From IMG/VR virus record IMGVR_UViG_3300005337_000001, positions 1-64,000 of that record: a stretch of 64,000 nt of DNA, one strand, 5' to 3'. The translations under genes were made by a program, and so were the position numbers. The stretch is from a virus. Positions 16,068 through 60,858 of this stretch are shown here, in pieces. How positions within the stretch are numbered: the first letter of the stretch is position 1; the number at the start of each line of letters is the position of its first letter. The notes beneath the pieces were generated by a model. It had not been told where the DNA came from. It saw only the letters and a program-made list of their open reading frames with translations, and did not search any database.

Positions 16068-16327
16068 GCGAGCAGGGCATGTCCGTGCTCGACGAGCTCC
16101 TGCTGAAGAAAGATCTCTCGTACGAGGCGCTGTTCTACAAGTACGACGAAGCTGCGTCGAAGCCCTACAGGCACGTGCTCAACAAGAAGAAGCTGTCGCG
16201 TGAAGCTCAGCACGTGGTGAACGGCGCGTACAGATACTTGACGGGCATGGAGCTGCACGTGAACCGCTACTGGCTGGCGGAGTCGATGACCGAGGCCATC
16301 TGCGCTGCAGAGGCTTTCGACCTGTGA
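16064..16327 (+). CDS. hypothetical protein (LAESMTEAI motif variant)
   Basis: Coupled ORF. Confidence 0.6.
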   Translation: MSEQGMSVLDELLLKKDLSYEALFYKYDEAASKPYRHVLNKKKLSREAQHVVNGAYRYLTGMELHVNRYWLAESMTEAICAAEAFDL

Positions 16328-34834: not shown

Positions 34835-35139
34835 GACGGCGCCTTCGACAGGTCGGGGCCAGGTTCGTGTTTCAGTACACGTTCTGCAGCCTGCTCCAAG
34901 GACTGCGCAAGCCTATTGTCCGAGTCTGACAACAAACCAAGCTCGGCCGTGGCTTGGGCAGAAAGAGCACAGCGCTGCACGTCTGGGTCGAGCCGCTCGC
35001 GCAGGTCCATGGCCACGAGGAGTGCGAGTAGATCGACGGGACGCACCAACACCCCTGACTCGGCGGTGCCGTTCGCAATCTGGCGCTCGACATGCTCGCG
35101 CAGCTGTTCAGTCGTTATTCCGCTAGGTAGCTTCATCAA
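34831..35139 (-). CDS. hypothetical protein (LAQSLEQAA motif variant)
   Basis: Coupled ORF. Confidence 0.6.
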   Translation of the reverse strand: MMKLPSGITTEQLREHVERQIANGTAESGVLVRPVDLLALLVAMDLRERLDPDVQRCALSAQATAELGLLSDSDNRLAQSLEQAAERVLKHEPGPDLSKAPS

Positions 35140-44724: not shown

Positions 44725-44943
44725 TTACGACACACGGTCAACGAACACCGTAGGCATCATGGCGGCGTATGTATTACCAACGCCGCGTAGTGTGGGATGC
44801 AAGATCTTCACTACAACCAAGTGCTCAATCGGCGCGTCCTGCTTAGTCATGGAGATGTGCTCGCCAACGCGAGGTAAGATCTCGGCGTCTTGTATCAAAT
44901 GAGACTGCTGCTTATGGTCAGTAGGCTGCAGCAAATAGTTCAT
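44725..44943 (-). CDS. hypothetical protein
   Basis: Coupled ORF; LPRVGE. Confidence 0.55.
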   Translation of the reverse strand: MNYLLQPTDHKQQSHLIQDAEILPRVGEHISMTKQDAPIEHLVVVKILHPTLRGVGNTYAAMMPTVFVDRVS

Positions 44944-47900: not shown

Positions 47901-48050
47901 GAGGATGTAGACGCCGGCGGCAGCCTCTTGGATGTCGGAGAAGGATACGGAAATCTTCCGGTCCCCGAGAATACCCGTAGGATGTCGAACCGTTGAACGC
48001 ACGATTTTCTCGACGGCTGCTTGTACTTCTTCGGCGGTGTAGTTGCTCAT
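44943..48050 (-). CDS. large putative virion structural (tail/baseplate-type) protein, 1035 aa
   Basis: Long ORF with helical ends and a beta-rich Gly/Thr/Val core; TAAQVASEIN and ATTVVDNIN segments like phage tail proteins. Confidence 0.6.
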   Translation of the reverse strand: MSNYTAEEVQAAVEKIVRSTVRHPTGILGDRKISVSFSDIQEAAAGVYILWFNAPFYTILLGARKLQDLALTQASTVTSLIDAVFATDRLVTPISDLSPLANARSALEELEAAVSSRTDGFSDITKVPAYRRYVQNLDGFLGTVGPNIKQAQSASSSSSSSGGSAIVDTPSGARAKIPALVRQMAEAHSELIRRAGLLSNAIADFGSLNLPRVAAQGVISRARDVLDQHFTELSALDENARLDNLRAVALDLITQQPLVAKYGAAQAPSEFITTSGQAQAFADAQHPATPAERASSSSGPYPILAANQFIRFAMDGGAPFDYPLPLSFIAELTAVLAEPFQIDPDRDALLIGFGSVDTGLPQFPVTLTNGLRTAAQVASEINAALGASALVCEEVFFPVRYNSPVVITSLGGNNARFTILGGSLTGLGIVVGDEVDVDEGANDGTTWVVTAVDPGGQFIDALGVAPVVPVPLPGAMISVGPAARALRLRDTDESGSLAQRRTVQLIRTGGEEDVAASVLGFFPGASARSRPVPATTVVDNINGSTSKLAAKLVFHDFEYVGVARSEPTDPTRVVFTKVTGTGTITVGGTTVTINIASEDQRVDIDINDPVVLRSSTFGLDAGKEGFIIAATDTTIDVTFPTTITAGDVTFEIGANISFGFGDILVVNDGSNAGRYVVGEDQGVKTTASFELVLERGLTSFKDGDLPIFFNASLGAEDVTFASRDTTLASEVIVDNAGASLGANYFLDPIDVGVPVRGFTNWLHFDTFPTGAVVGDSVQLYEAQYNEVSRTFTITGLEPALGVVALFELIESTFVMSFDFGVPNPFGRIRVVQVANYTQFKEELDAWLAQPEQQTSYFRDLARFLNPIVTNANPTVSMVNDANNHLKKLLAVLTTDGADLFGQLHVPTVVGQDTLEFALANYKAPAQEPVDTLLGTFRQKGADRAIDLLIEGQFSTFFNLDVDGVSYSGTLMSGLRNLAREDLPVRKFNRRSAGGEKLIGSSQDEKDFEFSSDDADSPGQPDIPTGPDVASPGENF

Positions 48051-48211
48051 TTGCTGTGATCTTTCAAGGTGATGAAGCTGTAGTTCTGCAGGTCCCGCTC
48101 GAAGTACTCCCTGAGCAGTGCTTTCAGCAAAATGTGACGTAGGGCACGTGCTAGCGGTGACATCGAGGTGCCGGCTACAAGCTGGCGTTCGGCGGGGGTG
48201 TACTCGCTCAT
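48047..48211 (-). CDS. small hypothetical protein (54 aa)
   Basis: Manual translation MSEYTPAERQLV..KDHSK; ATGA overlap with the large gene. Confidence 0.55.
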   Translation of the reverse strand: MSEYTPAERQLVAGTSMSPLARALRHILLKALLREYFERDLQNYSFITLKDHSK

Positions 48212-48220
48212 GTAGTTCCC

Positions 48221-48613
48221 TCAGAAAGGTAGAATGCGGATGCCTTTACCTTGCCACTTGCCGTACTTGGCCAGCACTTCTTCTTCGGTTTCCATCCCAT
48301 CTAAGTACCACTTGAGCGCCAGATGTTCGAAGTACCGCCAGAGTTCGGGCGGTGTGCCACGCTCTCCCCTGAATTGAATCTGCACACCACAGGGGAGGCC
48401 CTTGGCGAAGTTGCCGCTCACCAGCTCTTCTGGGATTGCAAAAACTATTCTGCCGTTACTGGGACGACGCCAAACCCTGCCTTGCATACCAGCTGGCAGA
48501 GGCAACGTTCCGTGGGTGTTGCGCAGGGTATAGATGCTGCCTTTTCGCTTCACGAAGTGGCTCGCTAGCGCCTCCTCCATGCCTTGCGCAATGTCGTCAG
48601 GTGCTGCGTTCAT
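48221..48613 (-). CDS. hypothetical protein (N-terminal IAQGMEEAL motif)
   Basis: Coupled ORF. Confidence 0.7.
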   Translation of the reverse strand: MNAAPDDIAQGMEEALASHFVKRKGSIYTLRNTHGTLPLPAGMQGRVWRRPSNGRIVFAIPEELVSGNFAKGLPCGVQIQFRGERGTPPELWRYFEHLALKWYLDGMETEEEVLAKYGKWQGKGIRILPF

Positions 48614-48846
48614 GTACTGGACACCTTCATGGCCTTCTTGAAAGCCTTGGACTTCAAGCAGCGCTTGCAGTTCACCTTGGATGAGGCCTTACGCACAGAG
48701 AGTACGGGACCGGCTTGGATGCCACAAGCTGTGCAGCCACCAGGGCCGAGGTGCGGGCGAAAGTGGGTGGCTTTGCCAGGCAGGTTGGGTATGGGTATGA
48801 GCCCAGGGACGAAGCCGGCGTACTCCTCGTTGAAGTGCTTGGTCAT
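48610..48846 (-). CDS. H-C-CxxC zinc-finger family protein
   Basis: THF..TACG..VNCKRC. Confidence 0.65.
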   Translation of the reverse strand: MTKHFNEEYAGFVPGLIPIPNLPGKATHFRPHLGPGGCTACGIQAGPVLSVRKASSKVNCKRCLKSKAFKKAMKVSST

Positions 48847-49238
48847 GTACCGGGCTCTTTCACCAAGGTCAGCTTGCGAGGCTCTTCAACCAACACATCC
48901 ATGGGATCAGCCGTGCGTGTGACCGTGCCAGCAAACATGGCCAATGCGAAGGCCTCTGGGCGCATGGTTACCGTGCCCGTGCCTTGGCGCAGCGTCTTGC
49001 CACACAAAGCGCAGGGATATTCGCCGGGCACTCCGACGGTTTTCTCTTCAGACTCCTCGTTGAAGTGACTACGGCAGACGAAAAGCCAGGTTCGGTTGGT
49101 GTAGGCAGCGGCGAGGCCCGGGCCTTTGGCAGTGGGGTCTGCCATCCTGCTCGAGCCCCTCATGAGCAGCTCGTAGGCTGCCAGCTCTTCGCCTGTGTCA
49201 GCTTCGATGGTGCCATCGGGTAGCTTGCGAATGGTCAC
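48843..49238 (-). CDS. hypothetical protein with zinc ribbon
   Basis: GTG start overlapping the upstream stop; VCRSH..CALCG. Confidence 0.55.
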   Translation of the reverse strand: MTIRKLPDGTIEADTGEELAAYELLMRGSSRMADPTAKGPGLAAAYTNRTWLFVCRSHFNEESEEKTVGVPGEYPCALCGKTLRQGTGTVTMRPEAFALAMFAGTVTRTADPMDVLVEEPRKLTLVKEPGT

Positions 49239-49639
49239 GTCGGTTCCCAGCCTTTCGTTCCTTCGGCTTTCATGTGATCGTAGACGCGGAGAAAAGCTAC
49301 ATCGAGGTCGAGCAGCGGCCCTTGCCAGTTCCACTCGGGGTCGTCAGCGGTCCACCACACCATCACGATGATTGGTATCTCCGGTGTGCGGTCTAGCACC
49401 ACGCGGTAGTCAAGCGCCCAGCCCGTTGCGAGCGACAGCTCGAGGTGCTTGTTGCGCGCTTCGATGAGCCAGCTCGCAGCTACCTGCGGGTCGTCGAACG
49501 CCAGGCAGGTGAGCTCGAAGCGTGCAGCTTTCCAGGCACGGACGTCTCCCGTCTCTTCGAGCGTGTAGATGGTAGCGCCGAGCTTCATGTCATAGACCGA
49601 CCAGAAGTTGGCTCGGCGCGGTTGGATGAGCGCGTTCAT
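49235..49639 (-). CDS. hypothetical protein
   Basis: Coupled ORF. Confidence 0.6.
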   Translation of the reverse strand: MNALIQPRRANFWSVYDMKLGATIYTLEETGDVRAWKAARFELTCLAFDDPQVAASWLIEARNKHLELSLATGWALDYRVVLDRTPEIPIIVMVWWTADDPEWNWQGPLLDLDVAFLRVYDHMKAEGTKGWEPT

Positions 49640-49947
49640 AGACACATGGGTTCTTCCTCGTAGACGTACTCTGCCGGGCCACGACGCCGGCGACAGATAG
49701 GGCCATGGAGATTGCCGTAGCGCCGCTGCAAAAACAGGAATACAGCGTCGGGGAAAGCGTGGCCGCCACCATGCTCATGCTCGAGCTCGCAGCGTTCACC
49801 GCCGCTCTCGAAGTAGGTGCACTGTGGTAGCGACGGTACATGGAGCACAGCAAACACACGGCCCTGCTCACAAACAGGGACAGCAGTCGCTACGCTGTGG
49901 AGCCGCACCGGCGGCTCAATAGGCAAGAGGCGGTAGCCGTAGCTCAC
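49636..49947 (-). CDS. Cys/His-rich hypothetical protein
   Basis: QC..RCELEHEHGGGH. Confidence 0.55.
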   Translation of the reverse strand: MSYGYRLLPIEPPVRLHSVATAVPVCEQGRVFAVLHVPSLPQCTYFESGGERCELEHEHGGGHAFPDAVFLFLQRRYGNLHGPICRRRRGPAEYVYEEEPMCL

Positions 49948-50186
49948 GTGCTCTCCTCAACCGGCAACTTGGCCAAGCAGGCTGGGCAGGTCACCTTCGC
50001 ATCGTCGAAGGTGTAGAGCGGGGTCTTGTCGGAAATGGGCGTGCCGTCCGACCAATCAGCGCGGTGCACGTCCTCAGGCAAGCCAGGGGGCTGGTTGTAA
50101 ACGTAGTACTCTTCCTCGGTGCAAAGCAGCGTCACGTAGGGCTGCGAGGCGTACTGACAGGCGTGAATGGGATCGGTAATGCTCAT
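49944..50186 (-). CDS. H-C-CxxC zinc-finger family protein
   Basis: IHA..LLCT..VTCPAC. Confidence 0.6.
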   Translation of the reverse strand: MSITDPIHACQYASQPYVTLLCTEEEYYVYNQPPGLPEDVHRADWSDGTPISDKTPLYTFDDAKVTCPACLAKLPVEEST

Positions 50187-50422
50187 GCGAACCTCGGTGC
50201 TGAAAACTCGTTCGGTTGGAGACCGTCGCTAGCTGCTAGCGCATCTTCCATGCCCTGGGCCAGGAAAGCCTCGGACGCTCGGCATGCAGGGCAGTCAACA
50301 CGCTCGCGGTGGACAGAACGGTTGTGCATGTACGCGAAGAGCCCGCAACCAGTCTTGGTATCGTTGTAAGCCTTGTCGGTGGTCACGTCCAAGAAGTGGG
50401 TGTAGGTCAAGGTCAGGCTCAT
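50183..50422 (-). CDS. H-C-CxxC zinc-finger family protein (LAQGMEDAL motif)
   Basis: THF..TGCG..VDCPAC, then AFLAQGMEDAL. Confidence 0.7.
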   Translation of the reverse strand: MSLTLTYTHFLDVTTDKAYNDTKTGCGLFAYMHNRSVHRERVDCPACRASEAFLAQGMEDALAASDGLQPNEFSAPRFA

Positions 50423-50610
50423 TTGACAGGCCCCGGAAAGTGCATGGCCAGCGCGCCCGGATCAACAAGGTCACCGTCGAGGCTGAACGTGCTCTTGTAC
50501 TTGGTGAAGCCACGCAGCGTGGACATTTCGATGCGCACCATGCCGGTGTGCTTGGCCAATAGCCGCAGGTCGCTGACTACCAGGGTCCAACCTTGCTCGG
50601 GCTGGCTCAT
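50419..50610 (-). CDS. hypothetical protein
   Basis: Coupled ORF. Confidence 0.55.
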   Translation of the reverse strand: MSQPEQGWTLVVSDLRLLAKHTGMVRIEMSTLRGFTKYKSTFSLDGDLVDPGALAMHFPGPVK

Positions 50611-50798
50611 GTACTTGCCTTCATCAGTGCAATTTCACGTGGTGTAAAGGGGCCATGCTCGCTGTGTTTAGCCACAACTTCAATAGCGCTTGCGAGAGTG
50701 GATTCGTCGCCGTGCTTGAATAAGGCTTTGGCTACACCCAAGGCATGCTTCAGCCTGGGTGGAAGCTCAGGTTTTGGTGCTGGGCGATGCGTGCTCAT
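50607..50798 (-). CDS. hypothetical protein
   Basis: Coupled ORF. Confidence 0.55.
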   Translation of the reverse strand: MSTHRPAPKPELPPRLKHALGVAKALFKHGDESTLASAIEVVAKHSEHGPFTPREIALMKAST

Positions 50799-51016
50799 CG
50801 CCAGCCCTTGGGCATCTTCGTCGGCAGTGTAGCGCCCAGCGGTAGTTTGAGCATGGACGCCTTGATCTGCACCTCCATGCCGTCGATGGCGCGCTTGCAG
50901 GCCTGACGAGCGAGCTGGAGCTGCATACGCATGTCGGCGAAGACCTCGGTCTTGGAGGCGTCATCGACATGTCTCTTGGCTAGGTCGAGCGCGGTTTGTA
51001 TTTCGTCGAATCTCAT
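50795..51016 (-). CDS. hypothetical helical protein
   Basis: AAGGA RBS before MRFDEI. Confidence 0.55.
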   Translation of the reverse strand: MRFDEIQTALDLAKRHVDDASKTEVFADMRMQLQLARQACKRAIDGMEVQIKASMLKLPLGATLPTKMPKGWR

Positions 51017-51041
51017 TTGATGTAGTCCTTCTTGAAGCTCA

Positions 51042-51380
51042 TTAACCTCTGAGGAGCTTCTGGATTTCGGCAGTGGCGTCGGTGACTCCATCGTCGAAGA
51101 CTTTGAACGAAGACTGCTTCATTGAGGCTAGAATGTCGGAGGGGTAGATAGTTTCGAAGAACGATGAGCCAGGAGCTTTAGGTAACCGGTCGCCGTTTCT
51201 ATTCGCTGGCGCCTGCAGCGCTTCCTCCATGCTTGCAGCCTGCGCGTCTTCGAACACAGGGGTGTCTTGGCAGTGCGGGCAGTCGGTGAGCTTGACGTCA
51301 CGGGTGAGCGATAGGTCGTAGCTGATGAAGACGTGACAGGCGGTGTACTTGTCGTCAGCTCGATAGAAGTGCACGGTCAT
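51042..51380 (-). CDS. H-C-CxxC zinc-finger family protein (QAASMEEAL motif)
   Basis: TVHF..TACH..TDCPHC, then QAASMEEAL. Confidence 0.7.
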   Translation of the reverse strand: MTVHFYRADDKYTACHVFISYDLSLTRDVKLTDCPHCQDTPVFEDAQAASMEEALQAPANRNGDRLPKAPGSSFFETIYPSDILASMKQSSFKVFDDGVTDATAEIQKLLRG

Positions 51381-51384
51381 GTGC

Positions 51385-51600
51385 TCACCGATCCCAGAAG
51401 ACGAAGCCTTGACTGTGCCTACCCTGGTGACCTGGCTTGAGCTTGCACGAAAAATTGGACCAGCGGTGGCCGCAGAACTCGGAGGTAGGGTACGGGCGTG
51501 TATTGAGCTCAGCACGTAATGTATCCAAGAGCCGTTCAGCCCAACCTACTGCAGCCACTAGCTCTTCGGTGGTCATGTCCGCGGGACGCTTGGTGTTCAT
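51385..51600 (-). CDS. hypothetical protein with C-terminal C..C..H..H
   Basis: FCGH..CKLKPGHQGRH. Confidence 0.55.
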   Translation of the reverse strand: MNTKRPADMTTEELVAAVGWAERLLDTLRAELNTRPYPTSEFCGHRWSNFSCKLKPGHQGRHSQGFVFWDR

Positions 51601-51974
51601 GTAACAGCTGCTCCAATGACATCGCGCGCAAGCATGTCGTTGAACATGCGGCGTACCGCAATGCACTGCCGATCGCCAGGGTTCAAGGCCTTCTTGCAGA
51701 TGTCGGGGCGCTTCTCATAGATGGAGCAGCTCACCTGCTTGCCGATGGAGCCTCGTAGGCTTACGCACCTGCAGTCCTCGGCGCCCTTGAGCGGACCCGT
51801 CTTGTTGAGAGTAGGCCTCGTGCGGATCTCGCTGTTGATGACGTTCAGCCGCACGTAGCGCCGGCCCAGTTTCTCTTCATCCTTGGGCGTCAGGTTCACG
51901 TAGGTGTCACTCCACGTAAGTGAGACACAACAGATGCCGCACTTGCGGCAGTCGGCTGATGTGAGCTTGGGCAT
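51597..51974 (-). CDS. YkgJ-family (CxxCxxCC) cysteine-cluster protein
   Basis: DCRKCGICCV..CVSLRG..CSIYEKRPDICK. Confidence 0.85.
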   Translation of the reverse strand: MPKLTSADCRKCGICCVSLTWSDTYVNLTPKDEEKLGRRYVRLNVINSEIRTRPTLNKTGPLKGAEDCRCVSLRGSIGKQVSCSIYEKRPDICKKALNPGDRQCIAVRRMFNDMLARDVIGAAVT

Positions 51975-51976
51975 GC

Positions 51977-52324
51977 TCAAAGACCCAACTCGAACCTAGC
52001 CGCTTTGATTGCTGTGAGCGAGATGTGTGAAGGTATATGGTTTTGGAGAGCGTGGATGTCACGACAAAACTCCCGCCAGGTCTCGAGGAGAAGTCTTTCT
52101 GCAGCACGTTCCTCCAGGCTGAGCCAGACTGAGCCGTTGCGGCTGTCCGGATGTAGCGTCTCGATGTCGAAGCGCCCTTGAGAGTGTGAGAACCTTGAGT
52201 CAGGGTACTTGTACTCCGCCCACTTGCGCCCAATTTTGCTGATCTCGTACTCGGTTGGTTTGCCGCGGTCGAAGTCGTGCTCGACGAATACACGCTGGCC
52301 TACCTTCAATTTGTGCTTGTTCAT
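51977..52324 (-). CDS. hypothetical beta-barrel protein
   Basis: LKVGQRVFV..EISKIGRKW. Confidence 0.6.
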   Translation of the reverse strand: MNKHKLKVGQRVFVEHDFDRGKPTEYEISKIGRKWAEYKYPDSRFSHSQGRFDIETLHPDSRNGSVWLSLEERAAERLLLETWREFCRDIHALQNHIPSHISLTAIKAARFELGL

Positions 52325-52326
52325 CT

Positions 52327-52863
52327 CTACTCCAGGTGATGCGGGCCTTCAGCACGGTATCGTTCGAGCTCCTGCGGCGTAGCGCCAGTGAGGCGCGTCT
52401 TCTTGCCCACACCATGCTCAAAATTGGCTTTGTGATGTCGAAACGCTTCAGCCTCGTACTCGAGCGCCACCATCTGCGTGGAGCCCCAGCCAGCTACCTC
52501 GATGGTCCACACGTGCGGCACCCACTTCTCGATTTTCTCGAAGGCCTTCTCCATGAAGCCAAAGCTGGGCTCGCCTTCGGTCTCTTGCTTCTCGATGAAG
52601 CCATGCTTGACTAGGCTTTCGAAGTCAGGGTGGAAGAAGGGGTTGGTAACCCACCAAGCAATGGGATTGGGCACAGGCTTGGCGGTGATCGCTTCTTGCA
52701 TGAGCTCGCCCATTCGCTTGAGCGAGATGAACTTCCACTCGTCCCCGTCTTTGGAAAGCGTCCAGATGAGTAGCGCCCCAGCGCATTCTTCTTCGCTGTG
52801 TCCAAAGGTGGCGGTGAGCGGCGGCATGTCGAGAATCACAGCACTCGGTTTGTAGATGGGCAT
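52327..52863 (-). CDS. hypothetical protein
   Basis: ORF. Confidence 0.65.
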   Translation of the reverse strand: MPIYKPSAVILDMPPLTATFGHSEEECAGALLIWTLSKDGDEWKFISLKRMGELMQEAITAKPVPNPIAWWVTNPFFHPDFESLVKHGFIEKQETEGEPSFGFMEKAFEKIEKWVPHVWTIEVAGWGSTQMVALEYEAEAFRHHKANFEHGVGKKTRLTGATPQELERYRAEGPHHLE

Positions 52864-52865
52864 GT

Positions 52866-53135
52866 TCAATCCCTCATTGGAGCCAGAATCCAACGCCACT
52901 CGTCGGGCCAGCTGTCGTCTTCGTAGATAGGACGTATACCCTCACCAGGAGGGTTGCCAAGAAAGGTGATGGCCCGGTTGTTAACCTGAGCTATGTGCGC
53001 GTTCCAGAAAGTGATGCCAACCGGTGTGAGGATCACGATGTCCTGCCGACCCCGCACTGCTAAACGCGGGTCATCGTCACTCCAGTTCGGCTCACCCCGC
53101 ATCTTCGGGCTCGTCTTTCGTCGTGAACTCGTCAC
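52866..53135 (-). CDS. hypothetical protein
   Basis: ORF. Confidence 0.5.
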   Translation of the reverse strand: MTSSRRKTSPKMRGEPNWSDDDPRLAVRGRQDIVILTPVGITFWNAHIAQVNNRAITFLGNPPGEGIRPIYEDDSWPDEWRWILAPMRD

Positions 53136-53301
53136 GCGCGGCGTAGTCTCGGATTTGGAAGCTGCCGGTGATGGGCAGCGAGTCGAGCTTCACGTTGATG
53201 GAGCCATCAGTATTCTCGAAGGCCACACCGATGCGTGTCCAGTACTTTTTGCCGTTGCGCTCGGTGATGTTGTAGCAAATTTTGTGCTTGCCGTTGCTCA
53301 T
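53092..53301 (-). CDS. small WTRIGVAF-type (DUF736-like) protein
   Basis: YWTRIGVAFENTDGSINVKLDSLP. Confidence 0.65.
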   Translation of the reverse strand: MSNGKHKICYNITERNGKKYWTRIGVAFENTDGSINVKLDSLPITGSFQIRDYAARDEFTTKDEPEDAG

Positions 53302-53510
53302 GTGTACCTCTGTCCTTTCAAGCAGCCTTCAGTTCGTTTGTAGCCGTCCACCTTGCGTCTCTTGTCCCACGTAAGCAGCTCATGAAAGAGCTTGCAGCTC
53401 ATGTTGCTGTTGGCCGTGCCCTCCATCCAATCGCAGTCGTTCGAACAGTGCCCGTTGGTGGAGGTGGTCACGTCAACGCCCACCACGACCGGCAGTATCT
53501 TGCGGTTCAC
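53298..53510 (-). CDS. small Cys-rich protein
   Basis: CSNDCDW..CKLF..C. Confidence 0.55.
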   Translation of the reverse strand: MNRKILPVVVGVDVTTSTNGHCSNDCDWMEGTANSNMSCKLFHELLTWDKRRKVDGYKRTEGCLKGQRYT

Positions 53511-53839
53511 TTATCCCTCACAGGGCGAAACAAGGGGCGCTGGCCGCGTGCGAGCATGCGCTTGCGCATCTCGAGAGAGATTTGGTAGGCCGTGACGCTC
53601 TCGCGTTCCTTGAGCATCTCGTCTCTGATCTCGTCCCACTCCTTGCACTCGTTCGCCCACTGCTGAAGCTGCTCTTCAGTGAGGTCGCAGGACTTGAGCT
53701 CAGGCTCGCCCTCCACCATCTTGCTCTGGTCGATGCCACAGGAGCGGCAGCGTCCATGGAGACGTAGGCCAAGCTGCCCCATCTCTTCCACCTGACCGTT
53801 ACAAGCCAAGCAGATCCACGCATCGGTTTCTTCGGCCAT
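53507..53839 (-). CDS. zinc-ribbon protein
   Basis: ICLACNG..GRCRSCG. Confidence 0.6.
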   Translation of the reverse strand: MAEETDAWICLACNGQVEEMGQLGLRLHGRCRSCGIDQSKMVEGEPELKSCDLTEEQLQQWANECKEWDEIRDEMLKERESVTAYQISLEMRKRMLARGQRPLFRPVRDK

Positions 53840-53840
53840 C

Positions 53841-54095
53841 TCACAGTCCTTCCATACTTGCGGCATTGGTAGGCCAATGCGTTCCAAGAAGAGACAAGCA
53901 CTCACCTCTATGCAGATTCTCCAGACAGCAAGATTCGCTTGTGATAGGCGAGACGGAGGGGCAACCCACCTTTTTGGAGCTACCGTTGAGGTTCTCGAGA
54001 GCGCGCTCAAAGCGATCGAGCGGCGCTTCGTACTTCATGTACTGCTGATGCCTGTGCCGCTTCTTACGCAGCGCACGCTTCTGCAGCTTGTTCAT
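53841..54095 (-). CDS. basic hypothetical protein (LDRFERAL variant)
   Basis: Coupled ORF. Confidence 0.55.
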   Translation of the reverse strand: MNKLQKRALRKKRHRHQQYMKYEAPLDRFERALENLNGSSKKVGCPSVSPITSESCCLENLHRGECLSLLGTHWPTNAASMEGL

Positions 54096-54289
54096 CGCCG
54101 CCTGAGCCTTTCAAGCTCCGCTTTGTACTTCTCAGCCAGGGTGTAGGTGCCTGCTTTGTCGTACCTACGCATGCGTCTGCCGTCGATCTCGGCCTGACTG
54201 GGCCGGCTCAGCGCATCCTCCATGCTCTGTGCAAGCGCTTCGTCGAGCAGCATCTCACGCACATGCTCAGGTAGTTTTGCTTGTTTCAT
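54092..54289 (-). CDS. small helical protein (LAQSMEDAL motif)
   Basis: Coupled ORF. Confidence 0.65.
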   Translation of the reverse strand: MKQAKLPEHVREMLLDEALAQSMEDALSRPSQAEIDGRRMRRYDKAGTYTLAEKYKAELERLRRR

Positions 54290-54654
54290 CAGATGAAGTT
54301 GGCAGCATCATCGAGCGCCACCCAGTATGCTGCGCGCCCCCTGATCCTAGATGGCCGTACTCGATACCCCGCTGTCAGCGGAAGCATCAACTGCGTCCAC
54401 GGTTTGGTGGAGCTCATCGCTCGAAAGCGCTCGAGGTCGTAATCGTCGATGAACTTGCGCTGCTTGTCTTCAGGTATGTCTCGCCACTGCCCCAACACCT
54501 CCTCGTAGTACGACTTACCAGCGGCGCGCAGCGGGTAGCCCATGTACTCGCTAGACCAAGACGTACCCCAATCGATGAAGCGGTACGGAGCCAAGAGGGC
54601 AAGCTCCATGTCGTCAGCCATGAGCTCATTGAAGGGCAGCACAAGTTGTCGCAT
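54289..54654 (-). CDS. hypothetical protein
   Basis: Coupled ORF. Confidence 0.6.
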   Translation of the reverse strand: MRQLVLPFNELMADDMELALLAPYRFIDWGTSWSSEYMGYPLRAAGKSYYEEVLGQWRDIPEDKQRKFIDDYDLERFRAMSSTKPWTQLMLPLTAGYRVRPSRIRGRAAYWVALDDAANFI

Positions 54655-54945
54655 TTACGTGGATGGGCCGACGTAGTTGAAGCGATACACAGGCGTCTCG
54701 ATGTGCGTGTTCTCTTCTAAAGTAGAGCGTAGGTAATCGTGGCGGATGAAGTCGCTCCACGAGTCCTTGCCTTCGGTGGCCCATTCACGCAGGCGCGTGC
54801 GCCCCGTCTCCCCGCACACGTACACCACAAAAAGCTCATCGGTGTCATGGTGCGATGTCAGGAACAGCGCGACGTACTTACCAGGACGCTTGTGGTGCGT
54901 GTAGATGCCGGGCTTGAAGTTCTTCGGGTCTTGGTATGGTTGCAT
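54655..54945 (-). CDS. DUF1653-like protein
   Basis: PGIYTHHKRPGKYVAL..HHDTDELFVVY. Confidence 0.6.
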   Translation of the reverse strand: MQPYQDPKNFKPGIYTHHKRPGKYVALFLTSHHDTDELFVVYVCGETGRTRLREWATEGKDSWSDFIRHDYLRSTLEENTHIETPVYRFNYVGPST

Positions 54946-54951
54946 GGATCC

Positions 54952-55299
54952 TCAGTACGGTTTCAGGGGTTTGTCGTTGGGCTCGCGCACAGCACGTGCC
55001 TCTGCTTCGTCTTCTAGCCCATGGAAGAACCACTCGGTAGCTTCCGGGTAGAGGTGGGTCTCAAATTTATCACTGAAGTAGCGCAGCTCGAGCTCGGCCT
55101 TTGCTTGCCCTTCATGTCTGATGCGCACGTCACACTCCTCGCCAACACGCGGGCCTTGCCGGTGTGCGTTCTGCACGACGTACTTCATCCACGGCGTGTA
55201 GCCGTCGTGGAGCGCGCGCTCCATACGCTCGGCCATGATGTCTTCGACGTCGGCGACGATCTCTTCCAGCCCTTCCGGGCTTCTCACTTTCGCGTTCAA
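54952..55299 (-). CDS. hypothetical protein, paralog of the adjacent upstream gene (MAERMERAL motif)
   Basis: WFFHGLEDEAEAR..LKPY; TTG start overlapping the upstream stop. Confidence 0.6.
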   Translation of the reverse strand: MNAKVRSPEGLEEIVADVEDIMAERMERALHDGYTPWMKYVVQNAHRQGPRVGEECDVRIRHEGQAKAELELRYFSDKFETHLYPEATEWFFHGLEDEAEARAVREPNDKPLKPY

Positions 55300-55712
55300 T
55301 AGGGCCTCATCTTCACCTTGATAGCAGTAGGGCGCACGGTGTAGCCCTCGTATAGCTTGCGCACCTTCGCCTCGTTTTCGATGCCTTCGAAGAACCACAT
55401 ATGGCGCTTCGGTCGATGCAACCGTGACCACTCCAGCTGCGGGAAGTCGGTAGCCCCTATCCCATCAACCCACGGCTCTGGATGTGTAGTTGGTGCTTGG
55501 GTCAGCGCGTAGCGCAGCAGAATACCAGCACGACCTGAACTCTGGGTGTAGAAGCGTACTACGCAGAGCTGGTCCTTCTTGCCGTACTCGTTGTGGCTGC
55601 TGCGCGTGATGTAGTAGTACCAACCGTTGGTGAGCGCAGCTTCCATACGCGCGGCAGGATCTACAAGTTGTTCTTCAGCGCCGCCGCGGTGCACTTTTGT
55701 ATGAAGCCCCAA
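55296..55712 (-). CDS. hypothetical protein, paralog of 54952-55299 (PAARMEAAL motif)
   Basis: WFFEGIENEAKVR..MRPY. Confidence 0.6.
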   Translation of the reverse strand: MGLHTKVHRGGAEEQLVDPAARMEAALTNGWYYYITRSSHNEYGKKDQLCVVRFYTQSSGRAGILLRYALTQAPTTHPEPWVDGIGATDFPQLEWSRLHRPKRHMWFFEGIENEAKVRKLYEGYTVRPTAIKVKMRPY

Positions 55713-56263
55713 ACTTTCTCACTTTCTCCTCCAAGTCCTCCAGCAGGTCGTGCAGCTCGGAGCTGCTCCTGCGCGAGTCGACTAAGAGGGATGGTGCCGT
55801 ACCAGCGGGCCCGCCGAAGTTTGAGGGCTTCCCCCGCTCCGGCGGTGGTCCGGCAAGGGCTCGCTCCATACCTGCAGCAAGCTTGCCATTCTTCAAGTAC
55901 CAGCCTTGGTATTTCCTGGCATAGAGCTTTTTCTTTCGACGACTCATCAGGCCTCTTCGAATACGTATCGGCCAGCGCGTAGGTGCGAGCCAATATGCGG
56001 CACTCGAGCGCCGCATAGTCGATCGTGCCGGTAACCAGCATCTCGTCGTGGATGAACGTCCCCGCAATCATCTTTTGGAGAGGGGTCTTTCGTATTCCCT
56101 GACCGCCGTAGACGGTTTCGAAGTCGAAGGGGATGAGCCCCGAAGGCTTAGGCTCACGAAATGCTTTCTCCATCCCGGCGGCGAGCTTGTCCTCGTAGGC
56201 CTTGAGCCTCAAGTACCGCCTGAGCTTGCGCTCTTTCTTGGAGCGTCGCCTAAGCCTTCGCAT
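55661..56263 (-). CDS. short protein carrying family A DNA polymerase motif fragments (LAAGMEKAF motif); true end probably near 55947
   Basis: FDFET, FIHDEML and DYAALECRILA within about 45 aa. Confidence 0.5.
   Translation of the reverse strand: MRRLRRRSKKERKLRRYLRLKAYEDKLAAGMEKAFREPKPSGLIPFDFETVYGGQGIRKTPLQKMIAGTFIHDEMLVTGTIDYAALECRILARTYALADTYSKRPDESSKEKALCQEIPRLVLEEWQACCRYGASPCRTTAGAGEALKLRRARWYGTIPLSRLAQEQLRAARPAGGLGGESEKVWGFIQKCTAAALKNNL
55675..55947 (-). CDS. basic hypothetical protein (LAAGMERAL motif)
   Basis: Start re-picked at MSRRKKK. Confidence 0.6.
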   Translation of the reverse strand: MSRRKKKLYARKYQGWYLKNGKLAAGMERALAGPPPERGKPSNFGGPAGTAPSLLVDSRRSSSELHDLLEDLEEKVRKFGASYKSAPRRR

Positions 56264-56567
56264 ATTGCGGGCACCCTTCGTAGTGATGCTCGCCCTTGCT
56301 GGCCTGCAGCGACAAACGTTGCTCTTCGGGGAAGCGGTGCGGATCACATCTGCAGGTAGCTGCCAGCACGTCCATAGTCTTCTTGATCACTGCAACTTGT
56401 ACTAGCTCTGTCACAGCACGACTCTTGGCTTGCTCGAAGGCTGCAACAGCATCTTCGTAGGAACCTCCAGTGGCGCGCACCCAGACGAGACGCAGCTGAT
56501 GCTCAGACTCCAAAATCCTTTCGAAACCGCTCGCTAGCTCTTCGTCGCTCTTCGTTTCGTTCGGCAT
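56250..56567 (-). CDS. hypothetical protein (LASGFERIL motif)
   Basis: ORF. Confidence 0.6.
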   Translation of the reverse strand: MPNETKSDEELASGFERILESEHQLRLVWVRATGGSYEDAVAAFEQAKSRAVTELVQVAVIKKTMDVLAATCRCDPHRFPEEQRLSLQASKGEHHYEGCPQYAKA

Positions 56568-56799
56568 CGGTCATCGCCTCCTCTCGCTTGCGACGTTCTG
56601 TGATGAACTCAACGGTGCCCTTCCACGCCTCCTCGTAGGTGTAACCCTTGACCACCTCCATGTACAGAAGCGTGTGCCTGTGGAAGAGCCGCCCGTCAGC
56701 TGAATCGACGAGCGCCTTCTCCATGCTCGCAGCTAGCTCTTCATCACTCAGCTCGTCTGAGGATTCCTTTTCGAGGTCTTGCGACTGGGGTTGTGTCAT
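56503..56799 (-). CDS. hypothetical protein (LAASMEKAL motif)
   Basis: Start re-picked at MTQPQS. Confidence 0.6.
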   Translation of the reverse strand: MTQPQSQDLEKESSDELSDEELAASMEKALVDSADGRLFHRHTLLYMEVVKGYTYEEAWKGTVEFITERRKREEAMTDAERNEERRRASERFRKDFGV

Positions 56800-57106
56800 C
56801 TTCCACCTTGCGCTGACCAAGGAAGGCCTTGGCCTGGAGCACGGTCTCCTGCGTGCCGTTCTTGATCTTGGCACCAAGAATACTCGTTTCCTCGGGCTGC
56901 AGCTCGATGATGTGCAGAAGCTCCTTGATGAGGGAGGGCGCTTCATCTAGGCGCCAGGTCTCCTCCCGCAGCGCTTTGACTGCGCGCACCAGCGCACGAC
57001 TGCCCTTGGTGTGGACAACGCTCGGGTGCGACTCGAGCTCGTCGACGCACTCGAAGGCCGCACGGAGCACGCGCTCCTTCAGCAGGTTCACAGAAGCAAT
57101 GCTCAT
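56744..57106 (-). CDS. hypothetical helical protein
   Basis: Coupled ORF. Confidence 0.6.
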   Translation of the reverse strand: MSIASVNLLKERVLRAAFECVDELESHPSVVHTKGSRALVRAVKALREETWRLDEAPSLIKELLHIIELQPEETSILGAKIKNGTQETVLQAKAFLGQRKVEDDTTPVARPRKGILRRAE

Positions 57107-57846
57107 CGGCGTATCTCCAAAGTTCGAATGACAGCTGGGCTGAGGTAGGGGTTTGCTTTGCAGGCGTTGACGATGAACTCTTCCATCGCCTTGTCGAAGT
57201 TGCCACCGTCGTCCCGACCACCAACGCCAATGCTAGTGGCCGCGCAGGGAATCAGATTCCTCTTCGTGTTCAACACAAGAGAACGCCCACTCGGCAGCCC
57301 CCAGCTAGCGCTGTGACCAGGGAAGTACATCAACTGCTGGATGTACATGCTGCCCACATCACGATCGACGATCTCGGCATTACGTTTGGCTTCGGCCACA
57401 TGCATAGCTCGAGCTGTCGACGTTCGGTGCAGGTCAGCTTCCCAAAGCCTGGCGATCTTGCGCGGCGAGAGCGGTGATACTTCCAGGAGCTGGGCGTCCC
57501 ATTCCTCATCGTGCTCGACGGTCTCCCACCCACTCTTATGTACATCAGGGGCACCCACCTCAATGCAGAAAAGCTGGCCAGGGGCTACGCCGTTCTCGAG
57601 CGCCCAATTGCGCCATGGCTGATGCCAGCTGCGGCCGTATTCCTCCACCGTACTGCCGCTCCAGTTGATGTTCAATGCCGTGTCTAAGTCGAAGTCGCTG
57701 AGCCACCAAGGCCACCATGCCGGCGGCTCGCTGTCTTCCACCTCGTTCCACATCGGCACCTGACCAGCCGCTTCTGGGGTCAGGTCGTAATCGAAGTTGC
57801 CCCAGTGCAGGCGGTACCAGAATTTGCACAGCTCTGGCCCGTGCAC
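57103..57846 (-). CDS. Trp-rich hypothetical protein
   Basis: Start re-picked at GTG 57846; the longer N-terminus is a shadow frame of the upstream acidic tail. Confidence 0.65.
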   Translation of the reverse strand: MHGPELCKFWYRLHWGNFDYDLTPEAAGQVPMWNEVEDSEPPAWWPWWLSDFDLDTALNINWSGSTVEEYGRSWHQPWRNWALENGVAPGQLFCIEVGAPDVHKSGWETVEHDEEWDAQLLEVSPLSPRKIARLWEADLHRTSTARAMHVAEAKRNAEIVDRDVGSMYIQQLMYFPGHSASWGLPSGRSLVLNTKRNLIPCAATSIGVGGRDDGGNFDKAMEEFIVNACKANPYLSPAVIRTLEIRR

Positions 57847-57862
57847 GTTTGCAGCTGAGATG

Positions 57863-58717
57863 TCAGTCGTCGGATACTTCGTCAGCTTCTTCAGTGTCCT
57901 CAGCGTCTTCTTCGTCTTCGTCGTCAGATACGTCATCGCCAGTGCTCCTAGCGTCGGGTGATGAGTCGGCGAGCTCGTCTTTGTCCATAGGTTCCACGTT
58001 TTGGACGGTGACTTCCCACCCATCCTCTTCGAGCTGTTTTACAGCCTCGCTCACCTGATCGTCCACCGGCGTCGCCTCTTGACCATCGTCGATGACGCTC
58101 CAGTTGGGATCGCCCGACATCTTGCGCTCGACCAGCAGCTCCACGTTGTACACGGGCTCGTTGAACATCCTCGCCTGGTCGACAACCTCTTCCGAGCTCA
58201 GATTGGTCAAAAACTCGCTGATGCCAGGCTCTGTGCCGTTGAAGTCCTTACCCGTACATTCTTTGAAGAGCTGCTTGCGTTCTTCGGGCAGAAGCACGAT
58301 GACACGCATCTCGTCCATCACCCACCAGCGCTTGGTGTGATGCTTGAACCACCAATCCAGTAGGGACTGTAGCGACGGCGCATCGGCTACGGTGTAGCTG
58401 TCGGGCGCGTCCTGGTCCTCGTAGGCGTCGATGAGAAGCTGCTGCGCACTTGGCGCTTCCAACTGCACCGGCTTGCAAGGGATGAGCACGTAGGGGATGT
58501 TGATCTCGTCGATCTCAGGCTCGAAGTTCTTGCGCTCGAATGCGCCAGCCTCTTCGAGAGTCTGAAAGTAGCCCTCGTCTTCGTGAGCTTCCCACTGGAA
58601 GAAGCCCTCGGGGTGTTCGTCTTTGAACTGCTCGAGTGAGATGCGCTCCTCACCCGCATGCTCCTTGGCTACGTGCAGAGGCAATCGTCGAATAGCTTCA
58701 AGCAAAGGTGTCGTCAT
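57863..58717 (-). CDS. highly acidic hypothetical protein
   Basis: Glu/Asp-rich throughout; start MTTPLL. Confidence 0.7.
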   Translation of the reverse strand: MTTPLLEAIRRLPLHVAKEHAGEERISLEQFKDEHPEGFFQWEAHEDEGYFQTLEEAGAFERKNFEPEIDEINIPYVLIPCKPVQLEAPSAQQLLIDAYEDQDAPDSYTVADAPSLQSLLDWWFKHHTKRWWVMDEMRVIVLLPEERKQLFKECTGKDFNGTEPGISEFLTNLSSEEVVDQARMFNEPVYNVELLVERKMSGDPNWSVIDDGQEATPVDDQVSEAVKQLEEDGWEVTVQNVEPMDKDELADSSPDARSTGDDVSDDEDEEDAEDTEEADEVSDD

Positions 58718-59592
58718 TTGTCTTTGTCCTCGTTGAACTTCCTGGGATTGAATGCGATACCAGGCACTACATTGGGGTTGTTCTTGTCGTCTTCGTACAC
58801 GTAGCGCGTGGCCGCGCCCTTCTGCTCGATACGTTCGAAATTGCCGCACCGCCCGCATTCGAACAGTGTGGTCTTCGGCTCGCCCGAATCGTCTTCGAAC
58901 AGCTCCTCAAGTGAAACCTCTCGCACCACGGCAAGCTCTTCCGTCTTGGTCGCCGCCCAGCTATCGCAGCGTGGGCACTCGACACCAGGTACCTGCCAGT
59001 TCTGCGCCAGGAAGGCCTCGAGCTGAGTTAGGTCACTGGTGTCGTAGCGCCTCACGATCTCGGGCTTGGGCATGCGCCGCACCTGCTCAGCCGTGGTCTC
59101 GAAGCGCAGGTTCGCACGCACGTGCGCGTAGCGCTCTTCGTGCGCATTGAGCAGGAAGTCCACGACCTCGCCTTGCTCCAAGACCCAGGCCATGGCCGTC
59201 TCGATGCCACGCTCGACGTGCTCGTTGGCCATGCTCTTCAAGTTGATGAGCGCAGCTTCATCGTCGGTGAGCTCACTACCTATCGCCTGGGTCAACAGCC
59301 AGATGGGAGCCTCGCTGAAGCCCATGAACTTGGGGCTGCTGAGAAACTGCATGGCCTTGGAGTAAGCCACGCGCAGCAGGGTCGTATACGAGTCGACACC
59401 GTCATCGCCTCCCTTGGGTCGCGTCCCGATGCAGATAGGGAACCGACTGCAGCCGTAGAACTCGCCCTTCTTACCCACGCGCTCCATCATGGGCACGCCG
59501 CATTCCGGGCATCGCACATGCTGAAGCAGCGTTCTCTCACGCCATTTTTTCAACTTGCCTCCTAGCAGTTTGCGTCGACGAGCACACCGCAC
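58714..59592 (-). CDS. protein with topoisomerase-type C4 zinc finger and further zinc ribbons (start uncertain)
   Basis: CPECGVPMMERVGKKGEFYGCSRFPIC; CPRC..CGRC. Confidence 0.75.
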   Translation of the reverse strand: MRCARRRKLLGGKLKKWRERTLLQHVRCPECGVPMMERVGKKGEFYGCSRFPICIGTRPKGGDDGVDSYTTLLRVAYSKAMQFLSSPKFMGFSEAPIWLLTQAIGSELTDDEAALINLKSMANEHVERGIETAMAWVLEQGEVVDFLLNAHEERYAHVRANLRFETTAEQVRRMPKPEIVRRYDTSDLTQLEAFLAQNWQVPGVECPRCDSWAATKTEELAVVREVSLEELFEDDSGEPKTTLFECGRCGNFERIEQKGAATRYVYEDDKNNPNVVPGIAFNPRKFNEDKDK

Positions 59593-59972
59593 TCATCACA
59601 GCAGCGATCGAGCGCTTCCTTGGCATCACTCCAAAGCGTTGTCATAAAGCCGCTCAGGTACGGCAGGTCAGGGTAGTTACTAGCGTTGGCTTGTACAACC
59701 AACGGTGCGTTGGTCTGCGCTGACAGCGCGATCTCCATACTACGTGCAGTGCAATGCTGGCGATGGCAACGCCAACACACGACGCAGCCGTTGCTGAACG
59801 TGTAGCCGATGAGCAGGTGCACAGCCTCTGACAGCACTCCGCCCCAACGAATCTCACCGCAGTAGGTACATTCCCAACCGCTGTGGAACCGAGGGGGCGG
59901 GTTCACTTCGACGCACTGCGCGTGCGTCTTGCAATTCTGACAGGGGCTGACGGGCTTGACCCGTCGAGTCAT
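59562..59972 (-). CDS. Cys-rich protein (TARSMEIAL motif)
   Basis: CQNC..CTYC..CWRC..CDECG. Confidence 0.6.
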   Translation of the reverse strand: MTRRVKPVSPCQNCKTHAQCVEVNPPPRFHSGWECTYCGEIRWGGVLSEAVHLLIGYTFSNGCVVCWRCHRQHCTARSMEIALSAQTNAPLVVQANASNYPDLPYLSGFMTTLWSDAKEALDRCCDECGVLVDANC

Positions 59973-60280
59973 GGACTGCAGCAGGGCGCTGGCATGTGCT
60001 CTTGCTCGAGCTCGATGGCGCGCTCTACGAGCTGAGTCGCCAAGCCTTCGGGCTGGTGAAACGCGTCGAGGGCATCGAGCAGCTGCACGTGCGGAAGAAG
60101 CTCTTGGTAGAGCTCCACGGCTTTGTCGTGTTCGCCACGAGCTTTCGCTTCTGTTGCGTCGTCCTGAAGCTTGATAGCTGTGGCCATCAAGTCGTCCAAG
60201 GCGATGAAGCCACCCCGGAAAGGAATGAGCCCTCGCCCAACAGCTCCAGCGTCATCGAGCATACGATCATCACCAGCCAT
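59969..60280 (-). CDS. TPR-like helical protein
   Basis: AKARGEHDKAVELYQELL. Confidence 0.55.
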   Translation of the reverse strand: MAGDDRMLDDAGAVGRGLIPFRGGFIALDDLMATAIKLQDDATEAKARGEHDKAVELYQELLPHVQLLDALDAFHQPEGLATQLVERAIELEQEHMPAPCCSP

Positions 60281-60368
60281 GCGACACCTATCACTATCTT
60301 TAGTGCGTTGTTCATACGAGCCTTTTCCTCCGCACCGTTGAAGAGAGGCTCGCCCTTTTCGGGAAACC

Positions 60369-60587
60369 TCACTCCGACGAGTCGTCTTCAGGTGGCTGCT
60401 CTATCAGCAAATCAGCTGGTAGCGCAGGTGCCCGCAGTGCAGGCAAGCCGGAGATCTCCGGCGGTGGATTGGATGAAACGGGAGACAACGGCGGGACCGG
60501 CCATGTTGAATGATCTTCAGGCAGGTCCGGCATGGGCTGGCTCACCAGCGTCTTGTCGTTCTCCTCGTTAGCCTTTGGGATTGTCAT
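60369..60587 (-). CDS. Pro-rich hypothetical protein
   Basis: ORF. Confidence 0.45.
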   Translation of the reverse strand: MTIPKANEENDKTLVSQPMPDLPEDHSTWPVPPLSPVSSNPPPEISGLPALRAPALPADLLIEQPPEDDSSE

Positions 60588-60858
60588 CGATCCCCTTGAT
60601 CTCGTACTGCTCGGACATCTCGGCGGCCTGCCTCATCAGCTCCTCGGCGTTCTTGTGGCCCATCACCTTGCGGTAGTTGCCAATGATGCCTTTGAGCACG
60701 AGCCTGATGGCGGTCAGCTGAACCATCGTGGAATCGACTTCCAGGTTCAGCACTTCCATGATTTTGTTCACGAGCAGAAGAACGCGGTCTTCGGGAACGT
60801 CCTCGGACGGTTTTTTTAGCTGCCACTGCTGTGGCTTCGGGTCGAGAACTTTGCCCAT
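60568..60858 (-). CDS. hypothetical helical protein
   Basis: Start MGKVLD after the promoter-motif variant at 60865-60879. Confidence 0.6.
   Translation of the reverse strand: MGKVLDPKPQQWQLKKPSEDVPEDRVLLLVNKIMEVLNLEVDSTMVQLTAIRLVLKGIIGNYRKVMGHKNAEELMRQAAEMSEQYEIKGIDDNPKG

Follow-up and report, generated by a model that had tools for sequence, protein, structure and literature searches.

The first 64 kb (64,000 nucleotides, hereafter the window) of IMG/VR virus record IMGVR_UViG_3300005337_000001, one 195,580-bp contig that has direct terminal repeats and a G+C content of 59%, encodes a set of small proteins that share a short motif with the core A-x-x-M-E-x-A-L. Twelve of the carriers lie in a plastic cluster of about 37 small same-strand genes (48047-60858, minus strand). 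We propose that the motif is a docking helix that is read by one common, probably phage-encoded, partner; this proposal is tentative, draws on sequence comparison, and has in our judgement a probability of roughly 0.4. An initial annotation of this DNA had suggested an amphipathic-helix tag on unlike proteins, and that part of it is supported indirectly but well by the non-homology of the carriers, the persistence of the motif between diverging flanks, the gain of a copy in a protein linker and the in-step change of the motif between lineages. The capsid-related and cleavage mechanism that it offered for the tag found no support.

When the whole genome was translated in six frames, the strict core matched 12 times. 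Ten of these matches fall on the minus strand between 48,566 and 59,750, and the others are at 5712-5738 (minus strand) and 105361 (plus strand). Amino-acid composition leads to an expectation of 0.09 matches, and 2000 within-protein shuffles of the called proteome gave a mean of 0.106 and a maximum of 2, which rules out a chance origin. The called genes between 62 and 147 kb hold a single match, in a plus-strand gene of 295 amino acids, and the long minus-strand blocks that bear the large terminase gene (terL) and a putative RNA polymerase hold none. All 15 peptides of the initial annotation translate as it reported, at the right coordinates and on the right strands. Most of them hold as instances, but that list missed MADDMELAL (54595-54621, minus strand), two of its members are degenerate (56511-56537 and 857-883), and two that it had called weaker (16274-16300, plus strand, and 34885-34911, minus strand) lack the invariant M-E and are not to be counted.

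The conserved unit is longer than nine residues and reads [DE]-[DE]-x-L-A-[AEQ]-[GSR]-M-E-x-A-L-x-x-[PG]. Information at each codon position was calculated from 53 instances in six phages, namely this one and five closer relatives in public assemblies (L064, L066, L068, L069 and L071) that were reached through orthologues of one carrier. Codon positions 1 and 2 of A1, M4 and E5 carry 2.0 bits, whereas third positions mostly carry 0.08-0.7 bits, with 1.39 at the third position of Glu. As the third positions are nearly free, selection acts at the level of the peptide. Every instance lies in the coding frame of a plausible gene. The residue that precedes M is G or S in 32 of the 53 instances and R, D, N or K in the other 21. 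Within its carriers the motif starts at residue 8 to 216, never at the extreme terminus and always after other conserved residues. The flanks are often low in order-promoting residues (a downstream fraction of 0.07-0.13 in six carriers), and in six carriers they are rich in Pro, Gly or Ser; in one group, family A, the motif instead lies inside a long predicted helix (predicted local distance difference test score, pLDDT, about 51-54).

Apart from the motif, the carriers are largely unlike one another. We compared ortholog alignments profile to profile (hhalign) with the motif and three flanking residues on each side masked, and found that four pairs kept a signal, here named by the first coordinates of their genes: 54952/55296 (99.8%), 50183/51042 (60%), 48221/54952 (49%) and 56250/56503 (17%). 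Every other pair was at 6% or below, and with the motif unmasked, alignments between groups spanned just 11-25 columns. A single paralogous family is thereby ruled out, and on this comparison the 12 cluster carriers form at least eight groups without other similarity. Outside the cluster, the carriers are gene 5628-6383 and, weakly, gene 812-1252. None of the carriers has a family in Pfam scans.

Three cluster carriers belong to family A, all on the minus strand as are the other instances described here: a 115-amino-acid protein (gene 54952-55299) with MAERMERAL at residues 22-30 (55210-55236), a 138-amino-acid protein (gene 55296-55712) with PAARMEAAL (55632-55658) and a diverged 130-amino-acid member (gene 48221-48613) with IAQGMEEAL at residues 8-16 (48566-48592). 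In the zinc-ribbon family, the 79-amino-acid product of gene 50183-50422 carries LAQGMEDAL at residues 54-62, after a Cys4 zinc-ribbon-like segment (50237-50263), and its 112-amino-acid paralogue (gene 51042-51380) carries QAASMEEAL after a similar segment (51216-51242). LAQSMEDAL occupies residues 19-27 of a 65-amino-acid protein (54209-54235; gene 54092-54289), and MADDMELAL residues 12-20 of a 121-amino-acid protein (gene 54289-54654). An Arg/Lys-rich N terminus precedes both LAAGMERAL (55855-55881), in the 90-amino-acid gene 55675-55947, and LAAGMEKAF, with a final F (56159-56185), in the long open reading frame (ORF) 55661-56263 that encloses that gene. LAASMEKAL follows an acidic Ser/Asp/Glu run in a 98-amino-acid protein (56710-56736; gene 56503-56799), of which the 105-amino-acid product of gene 56250-56567, with the degenerate LASGFERIL (F-E for M-E; 56511-56537), is a weak paralogue. 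TARSMEIAL follows a Cys-rich segment in a 136-amino-acid protein (59724-59750; gene 59562-59972). The weak copy outside the cluster, LANSMETTL (T-T-L for x-A-L; 857-883), lies near the C terminus of the 146-amino-acid product of gene 812-1252.

Within families, the motif is kept while its surroundings diverge. Across the zinc-ribbon family the tails diverge completely, and invariant columns are limited to the Cys ligands, the motif's A, M, E and L, and three single residues (an N-terminal His, a Thr and a Pro). In family A, the M and E are invariant in 18 of 18 members, down to about 31% identity. The five closer relatives have 7-13 in-frame copies each, and every copy falls within the syntenic cluster, on its coding strand. 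The initial annotation had argued for selection on the peptide rather than on a DNA repeat and for about 9-10 independent carriers, and both agree with these data (third positions at 0.08-0.7 bits against 2.0 at positions 1 and 2; eight unrelated cluster groups and two carriers outside). It had also named homology of all carriers over their full length, or a motif not conserved among orthologues in related phages, as grounds for abandoning the idea; the carriers are not homologous in this way, and the five closer relatives keep the motif.

One of the carriers outside the cluster shows how a copy can arise. Gene 5628-6383 encodes a protein of 251 amino acids with no Pfam match and more than 60 homologues, many of them on phage contigs of about 200 kb. 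Its motif, VAAKMEQAL (5712-5738, minus strand), is sited in a variable C-terminal linker that joins the protein's conserved body to its equally conserved C-terminal end, and within the family it occurs only in two orthologues at 84-87% identity. Homologues at about 50% identity, one of which shares a 201-kb contig with the cluster of a close relative, lack the motif and retain the conserved C-terminal end. With the motif restricted to these near orthologues, 5628-6383 gained its copy recently, and a protein formerly without the motif can therefore acquire it. In the closer full-length homologues, the conserved end reads D-D-P-x-A-G-H-G-G-Y-N-W and follows a hypervariable linker.

Between lineages the motif takes distinct forms, which we call dialects. 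In more distant relatives, some of them from a set of 160-190-kb IMG/VR genomes that terminase-based searches returned (G001-G010), M-E-x-A-L is replaced by the genome's own version at the same place. We counted matches to a generalised pattern on the coding strand against those on the other strand and found V-A-x-x-M-E-x-K-[FI] in G001 (4 against 0), V-A-x-x-[MVL]-E-x-x-I in G002 (7 against 0), I-A-x-x-[MV]-E-x-A-L after T-D-D-E in L078 (10 against 0) and [LI]-A-x-x-[VA]-E-x-x-F in L080 (9 against 0). A further form, [VI]-E-x-[VA]-L-x-P, without A1, was seen by eye only, in four L079 proteins with a basic N terminus. Position 8 is L in 10 of 10 L078 instances and F in 9 of 10 L080 instances. 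Position 4 is never M in L080, where Val, Ala or Ser codons replace the Met codon and the peptide pattern is kept. Family A orthologues read MAERMERAL here and VAVHMEVKF in G001, and the family of ORF 55661-56263 reads LAAGMEKAF here and LLDRVENAF in L080. By these alignments, orthologous carriers follow the dialect of their own genome, and the change is shared among unlike proteins. Recent gene conversion is not the source of this uniformity, since the copies differ at synonymous sites. Because unlike carriers change the motif in step by lineage, the reader is probably phage-encoded. Of the indirect arguments for a single reader in each genome, one that would evolve with its phage, we regard the dialects as the strongest. 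In five still more distant relatives the strict pattern is at background, and the syntenic region of G006 holds no motif instance.

We suggest that the motif forms a short amphipathic docking helix of about 12-15 residues, or about three turns, in which L0, A1, M4, E5, A7 and L8 would lie on one, presumably exposed, face. Acidic residues would cap the N terminus of the helix, and Pro or Gly would end it. Such a helix appears to have been added to ten or more small proteins of the presumed early region that are otherwise unrelated, among them zinc-ribbon proteins, Arg/Lys-rich peptides, a beta-rich family and a 251-amino-acid enzyme-like protein. All carriers of one genome would then be read by the same partner and brought to one place or machine. 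The partner is probably encoded by the phage, and the leading candidate is a protein from the same operon.

This candidate, the 103-amino-acid product of the third gene of the operon (59969-60280, minus strand), is predicted to be a TPR/MIT-like three-helix bundle. Its family is present in every genome with the motif, and every genome in which a family member was found has carriers downstream. The AlphaFold2 model (pLDDT 80) has helices at residues 28-47, 51-70 and 80-94, and its top structural matches are the MIT domains of katanin p60 and Vps4 (Z 9-10; root-mean-square deviation 1.9-2.5 Å over about 70 residues). Several of the matches, which include MIT and TPR domains, were solved with bound peptides, helical in some cases. 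The profile of the family matches consensus TPR repeats in the PDB and in a library of 1.8 billion proteins. The true family consists of about 25 stand-alone clusters of roughly 100 amino acids; no fused forms were seen, and the long matches are ordinary multi-TPR proteins. On helix 3, a polar stripe of Q83, R87 and E90 is invariant in a nine-member alignment, and R87 varies in more distant members. Compared with motif position 8, twelve columns of the family separate the dialect groups; at position 66, for instance, genomes of the F/I type have R and those of the L type have Q, A or S. As the comparison covers 13 related sequences, the covariation is a lead only. Among the five operon genes shared with more distant relatives, 59969-60280 alone has a predicted fold of a kind that binds peptides. 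On the strength of the model we name it as the leading candidate reader, an assignment that we hold to be doubtful. It would also be rather unlikely that the full scheme applies, in which 59969-60280 is a MIT/TPR-like adaptor of this clade's own that takes hold of 8-13 unrelated early proteins by their M-E helix and gathers them on one target as exchangeable effectors, with co-evolving dialects that bar reading across lineages. Our literature search returned nothing relevant on a described phage motif of this kind or on phage MIT domains.

Several points weigh against a docking helix with this reader. Twelve different proteins competing for one site would be unusual for a stoichiometric hub. 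In family A, the predicted helix that contains the motif (residues 11-32) is continuous with the fold, at low confidence, and could be structural; the AlphaFold2 model of this family (pLDDT 64) is too uncertain to place the motif helix on its own domain. The commonest Pfam match of the candidate's family is MIT, found in four of nine members, and its 18.2 bits fall short of the Pfam threshold (30 bits). Foldseek gave weak E-values (0.2-1), Z scores under about 13 may reflect common arrangement alone for helical bundles, and three-helix bundles match many things. Three neighbouring genes, 60568-60858, 58714-59553 and 56744-57106, share the phyletic distribution of 59969-60280; all four conserved operon proteins tested are absent from five motif-free relatives, so that the phyletic pattern does not discriminate between them. 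Finally, G003 and G004 have the candidate reader and just 1-3 carriers.

Two other partners were considered and set aside. The 1035-amino-acid protein 44943-48050 has no Pfam or PHROG family, and a 31% homologue of it is present in G006, whose syntenic region lacks the motif, so we rejected it as the hub. An ESCRT-III-like partner had been indicated by a weak CdvB2 match of 56744-57106 (E 0.53), which the family profile did not uphold against the PDB or Pfam.

Descent could account for the motif without any common reader. One ancestral small gene, most likely of the type with an Arg/Lys-rich N terminus, may have spread as an inherited leader module by duplication, recombination and fusion to new C-terminal parts, and the helix would be kept for a reason internal to the protein, for a non-protein ligand (nucleic acid, by the basic run, or metal) or for self-association of the carriers. 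Consistent with this, the motif lies within the first 35 residues in 9 of the 14 carriers, with unlike bodies behind it; the strongly mosaic cluster points to frequent recombination; of the carrier types, only that with the basic N terminus occurs in all of G001, G002, G004, L079 and this phage; and in one pair of carriers the likeness is confined to a basic run, the motif and a Pro-rich stretch. Descent alone, however, does not explain why orthologues change in step with the unrelated carriers of the same genome, it leaves the copies after zinc ribbons and in the C-terminal linker of 5628-6383 without a source, and the differing synonymous sites exclude recent gene conversion as the origin of the uniformity. 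We consider an inherited leader possible but, on balance, unlikely. The motif may instead mark virion cargo, by directing carriers to the prohead core or scaffold for packaging and ejection with the DNA, where a prohead protease may cut after the Glu. The initial annotation had pointed in this direction with capsid loading and with cleavage by T4 gp21 and phiKZ gp175. Many cargoes with one signal suit packaging better than they suit a stoichiometric hub, several carriers are small, basic or zinc-binding, as internal proteins often are, and G or S does precede M-E in 32 of 53 instances. Yet this residue is not kept, being R, D, N or K in 21 of the 53 and variable in other lineages; the motif is 7 to 215 residues in and never at the extreme N terminus; the terL and putative RNA polymerase blocks have no instance, although the capsid gene itself was not identified; and the carrier genes occupy an early-type position, heading a unit in which topoisomerase and phosphohydrolase genes come later. 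The cleavage parallel is thus unsupported, and a cargo signal in general seems improbable.

A shared degron or timing signal, by which a host or phage protease or adaptor would clear early proteins together, is another design with many substrates and one reader. It would suit carriers that look early, dispensable and fast-evolving, several of which expose the motif in low-complexity flanks. Known bacterial degrons, however, are mostly at extreme termini, where the motif never is, a conserved host protease is, as the reader, hard to reconcile with dialects that differ by lineage, and Pfam scans found no protease family in the cluster; we judge it quite improbable. The peptide could, lastly, be the by-product of a nucleic-acid element around ATGGAG, such as a protein-binding site, an internal Shine-Dalgarno-like pause or a recombination linker. 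ATG-GAG does contain GGAG, and all copies are on one strand, but conservation follows codons, in that third positions are nearly free and the codons for Ala, Leu and Glu vary; every copy is read in the coding frame, no start codon lies at Shine-Dalgarno distance downstream, and L080 exchanges the Met codon for Val, Ala or Ser codons and keeps the peptide pattern. This last account is close to refuted.

The phage is uncultured. In addition to the large terminase, its contig encodes a helicase, a DNA polymerase of family A and a 2129-amino-acid ORF (140307-146696), the putative RNA polymerase. Terminases of cultured phages reach at most 28% identity, and there was no close match in the cultured-phage collection; a megablast search with the cluster and a tblastn search with the 1035-amino-acid protein against cultured phages likewise returned no match. 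With that protein as the query, a scan of viral contigs found nothing and a scan of metagenomes found only a 1.4-kb fragment. The cluster extends from a divergent intergenic region near 60.9 kb to the conserved 1035-amino-acid gene. Beyond it, the minus-strand direction runs on into the topoisomerase and phosphohydrolase genes, and because the carriers head this long leftward unit that leads into DNA metabolism, their position suggests that they are early genes. Among phages with close terminase and 1035-amino-acid proteins, the cluster is a mosaic of presence and absence. Of the five closer relatives, just 1-3 have any one of many of its genes; those at the start of the operon are common even to relatives at about 50% identity, and 60568-60858, 59969-60280, 58714-59553, 57103-58023 and 56744-57106 occur in all or most of G001-G004. 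When about 30 cluster proteins were scanned against Pfam, the scans returned only zinc ribbons and ProQ_C-like, DUF1653 and CxxCxxCC matches, with no enzyme family.

Several other genes of the region drew our attention. A 115-amino-acid protein (51977-52324, minus strand) matches Pfam Phage_ProQ_C_like (E 6.6e-13) and is found at 33-43% identity in five of the five closer relatives, despite the mosaic cluster. A 284-amino-acid protein (57863-58717, minus strand), also kept in the five closer relatives, has an end of about 45 residues that are nearly all Asp, Glu and Ser. In L079, a 200-amino-acid sigma-70-family gene with regions 2 and 4 (15305-15907, plus strand) lies directly upstream of the cluster-closing gene of about 1038 amino acids; the window, unlike L079, has no sigma-70-family gene upstream of its 1035-amino-acid counterpart.

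Copies that depart from the motif were also seen. An 84-amino-acid protein (53841-54095, minus strand) ends in A-A-S-M-E-G-L right before the stop and looks like a truncated copy. Beyond the window, two small minus-strand ORFs have variants, V-A-Q-G-M-E-D-Q-L near the N terminus after a Gly/Pro-rich stretch (65802-66215) and L-L-E-E-M-E-E-A-L at the start (68146-68367).

The carriers 55661-56263 and 55675-55947 (both minus strand) form a conserved overlapping pair, in which the 3' half of the 201-amino-acid ORF contains the 90-amino-acid gene, entirely within its +1 frame. The long ORF is open in L064, L066, L068 and L069, its stop always lies 14 nucleotides past the embedded stop, and its end is conserved. 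Synonymous resampling of the embedded gene left the long frame open only about 5% of the time per phage, and codon scores in the overlap favour the embedded frame. The N-terminal half of the long ORF (55961-56263) contains the words D-F-E-T and D-Y-x-A-L-E-x-R-I-x-A, which recall Exo I and motif A of family-A polymerases. D-F-E-T recurs in the closer relatives, and a homologue in L080 (BLASTP E 7e-5) keeps the D-Y-x-A-L-E-x-R-I-x-A word and the basic N terminus.

Most small early genes of large phages have no assigned function and offer no handle for study. An internal helix that is shared by many of them and changes in step genome-wide would mark a set of proteins that act through one partner. 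That partner, once identified, would place at least a dozen orphan genes of each phage in this clade in one pathway. Helix and reader would together form a portable docking pair, for which the dialects are a natural specificity experiment.

Among known systems, the pairing of MIT domains with MIM1 helices, in which Vps4, katanin and related AAA ATPases engage ESCRT-III tails, offers both likenesses and differences. The MIM1 consensus is (D/E)xxLxxRLxxL(K/R). Like the proposed motif helix, MIM1 is a short amphipathic helix that follows acidic residues and has its hydrophobic positions at i, i+4 and i+7/8, and it is carried by several different proteins. The MIT domain is a three-helix bundle, and the MIM1 helix lies between its helices 2 and 3 (PMC7240154, PMC11218997). 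The modelled fold of 59969-60280 best matches MIT, with a sequence match below threshold. Unlike the MIT-bearing ATPases, however, 59969-60280 stands alone at 103 amino acids with no ATPase attached. The motif is internal or N-proximal on unrelated small proteins, whereas MIM1 is the C-terminal Leu-rich helix of ESCRT-III proteins, of which we found none among the carriers, and an invariant Met-Glu takes the place of the Arg-Leu of MIM1.

The capsid targeting sequence of T4 (IPI-III and Alt) and the prohead cleavage sites (L/I-x-E for gp21; S/A/G-x-E for phiKZ gp175) resemble the motif in that one address peptide is carried by unlike phage proteins and in the Glu at its centre. They differ from it in sitting at the extreme N terminus and in the pattern before the Glu, which is not kept here, and the carriers belong to an early-type cluster, with the motif absent from the terL and putative RNA polymerase blocks. 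In phage replication hubs, such as the C termini that bind the T4 gp45 clamp and the acidic tails of T7 gp2.5 and gp4 that bind T7 DNA polymerase, a short peptide on unlike proteins likewise meets one phage-encoded partner, and peptide and partner co-evolve within a lineage. Hub motifs are C-terminal, extended or acidic, though, whereas the motif is an internal, presumably helical segment, and its carriers are mostly tiny proteins of unassigned function. A further comparison is with the leaders of ribosomally synthesized and post-translationally modified peptides, whose systems encode modifying enzymes beside many precursors with one leader in common. The roughly 30 cluster proteins scanned against Pfam include no enzyme family, and the carriers are proteins of 65-250 amino acids with folded bodies. 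The motif behaves as a short linear docking motif would, as a peptide on otherwise unrelated proteins, which the masked profile comparison found here, and one that can be gained in a variable linker while the domains around it stay, as in 5628-6383.

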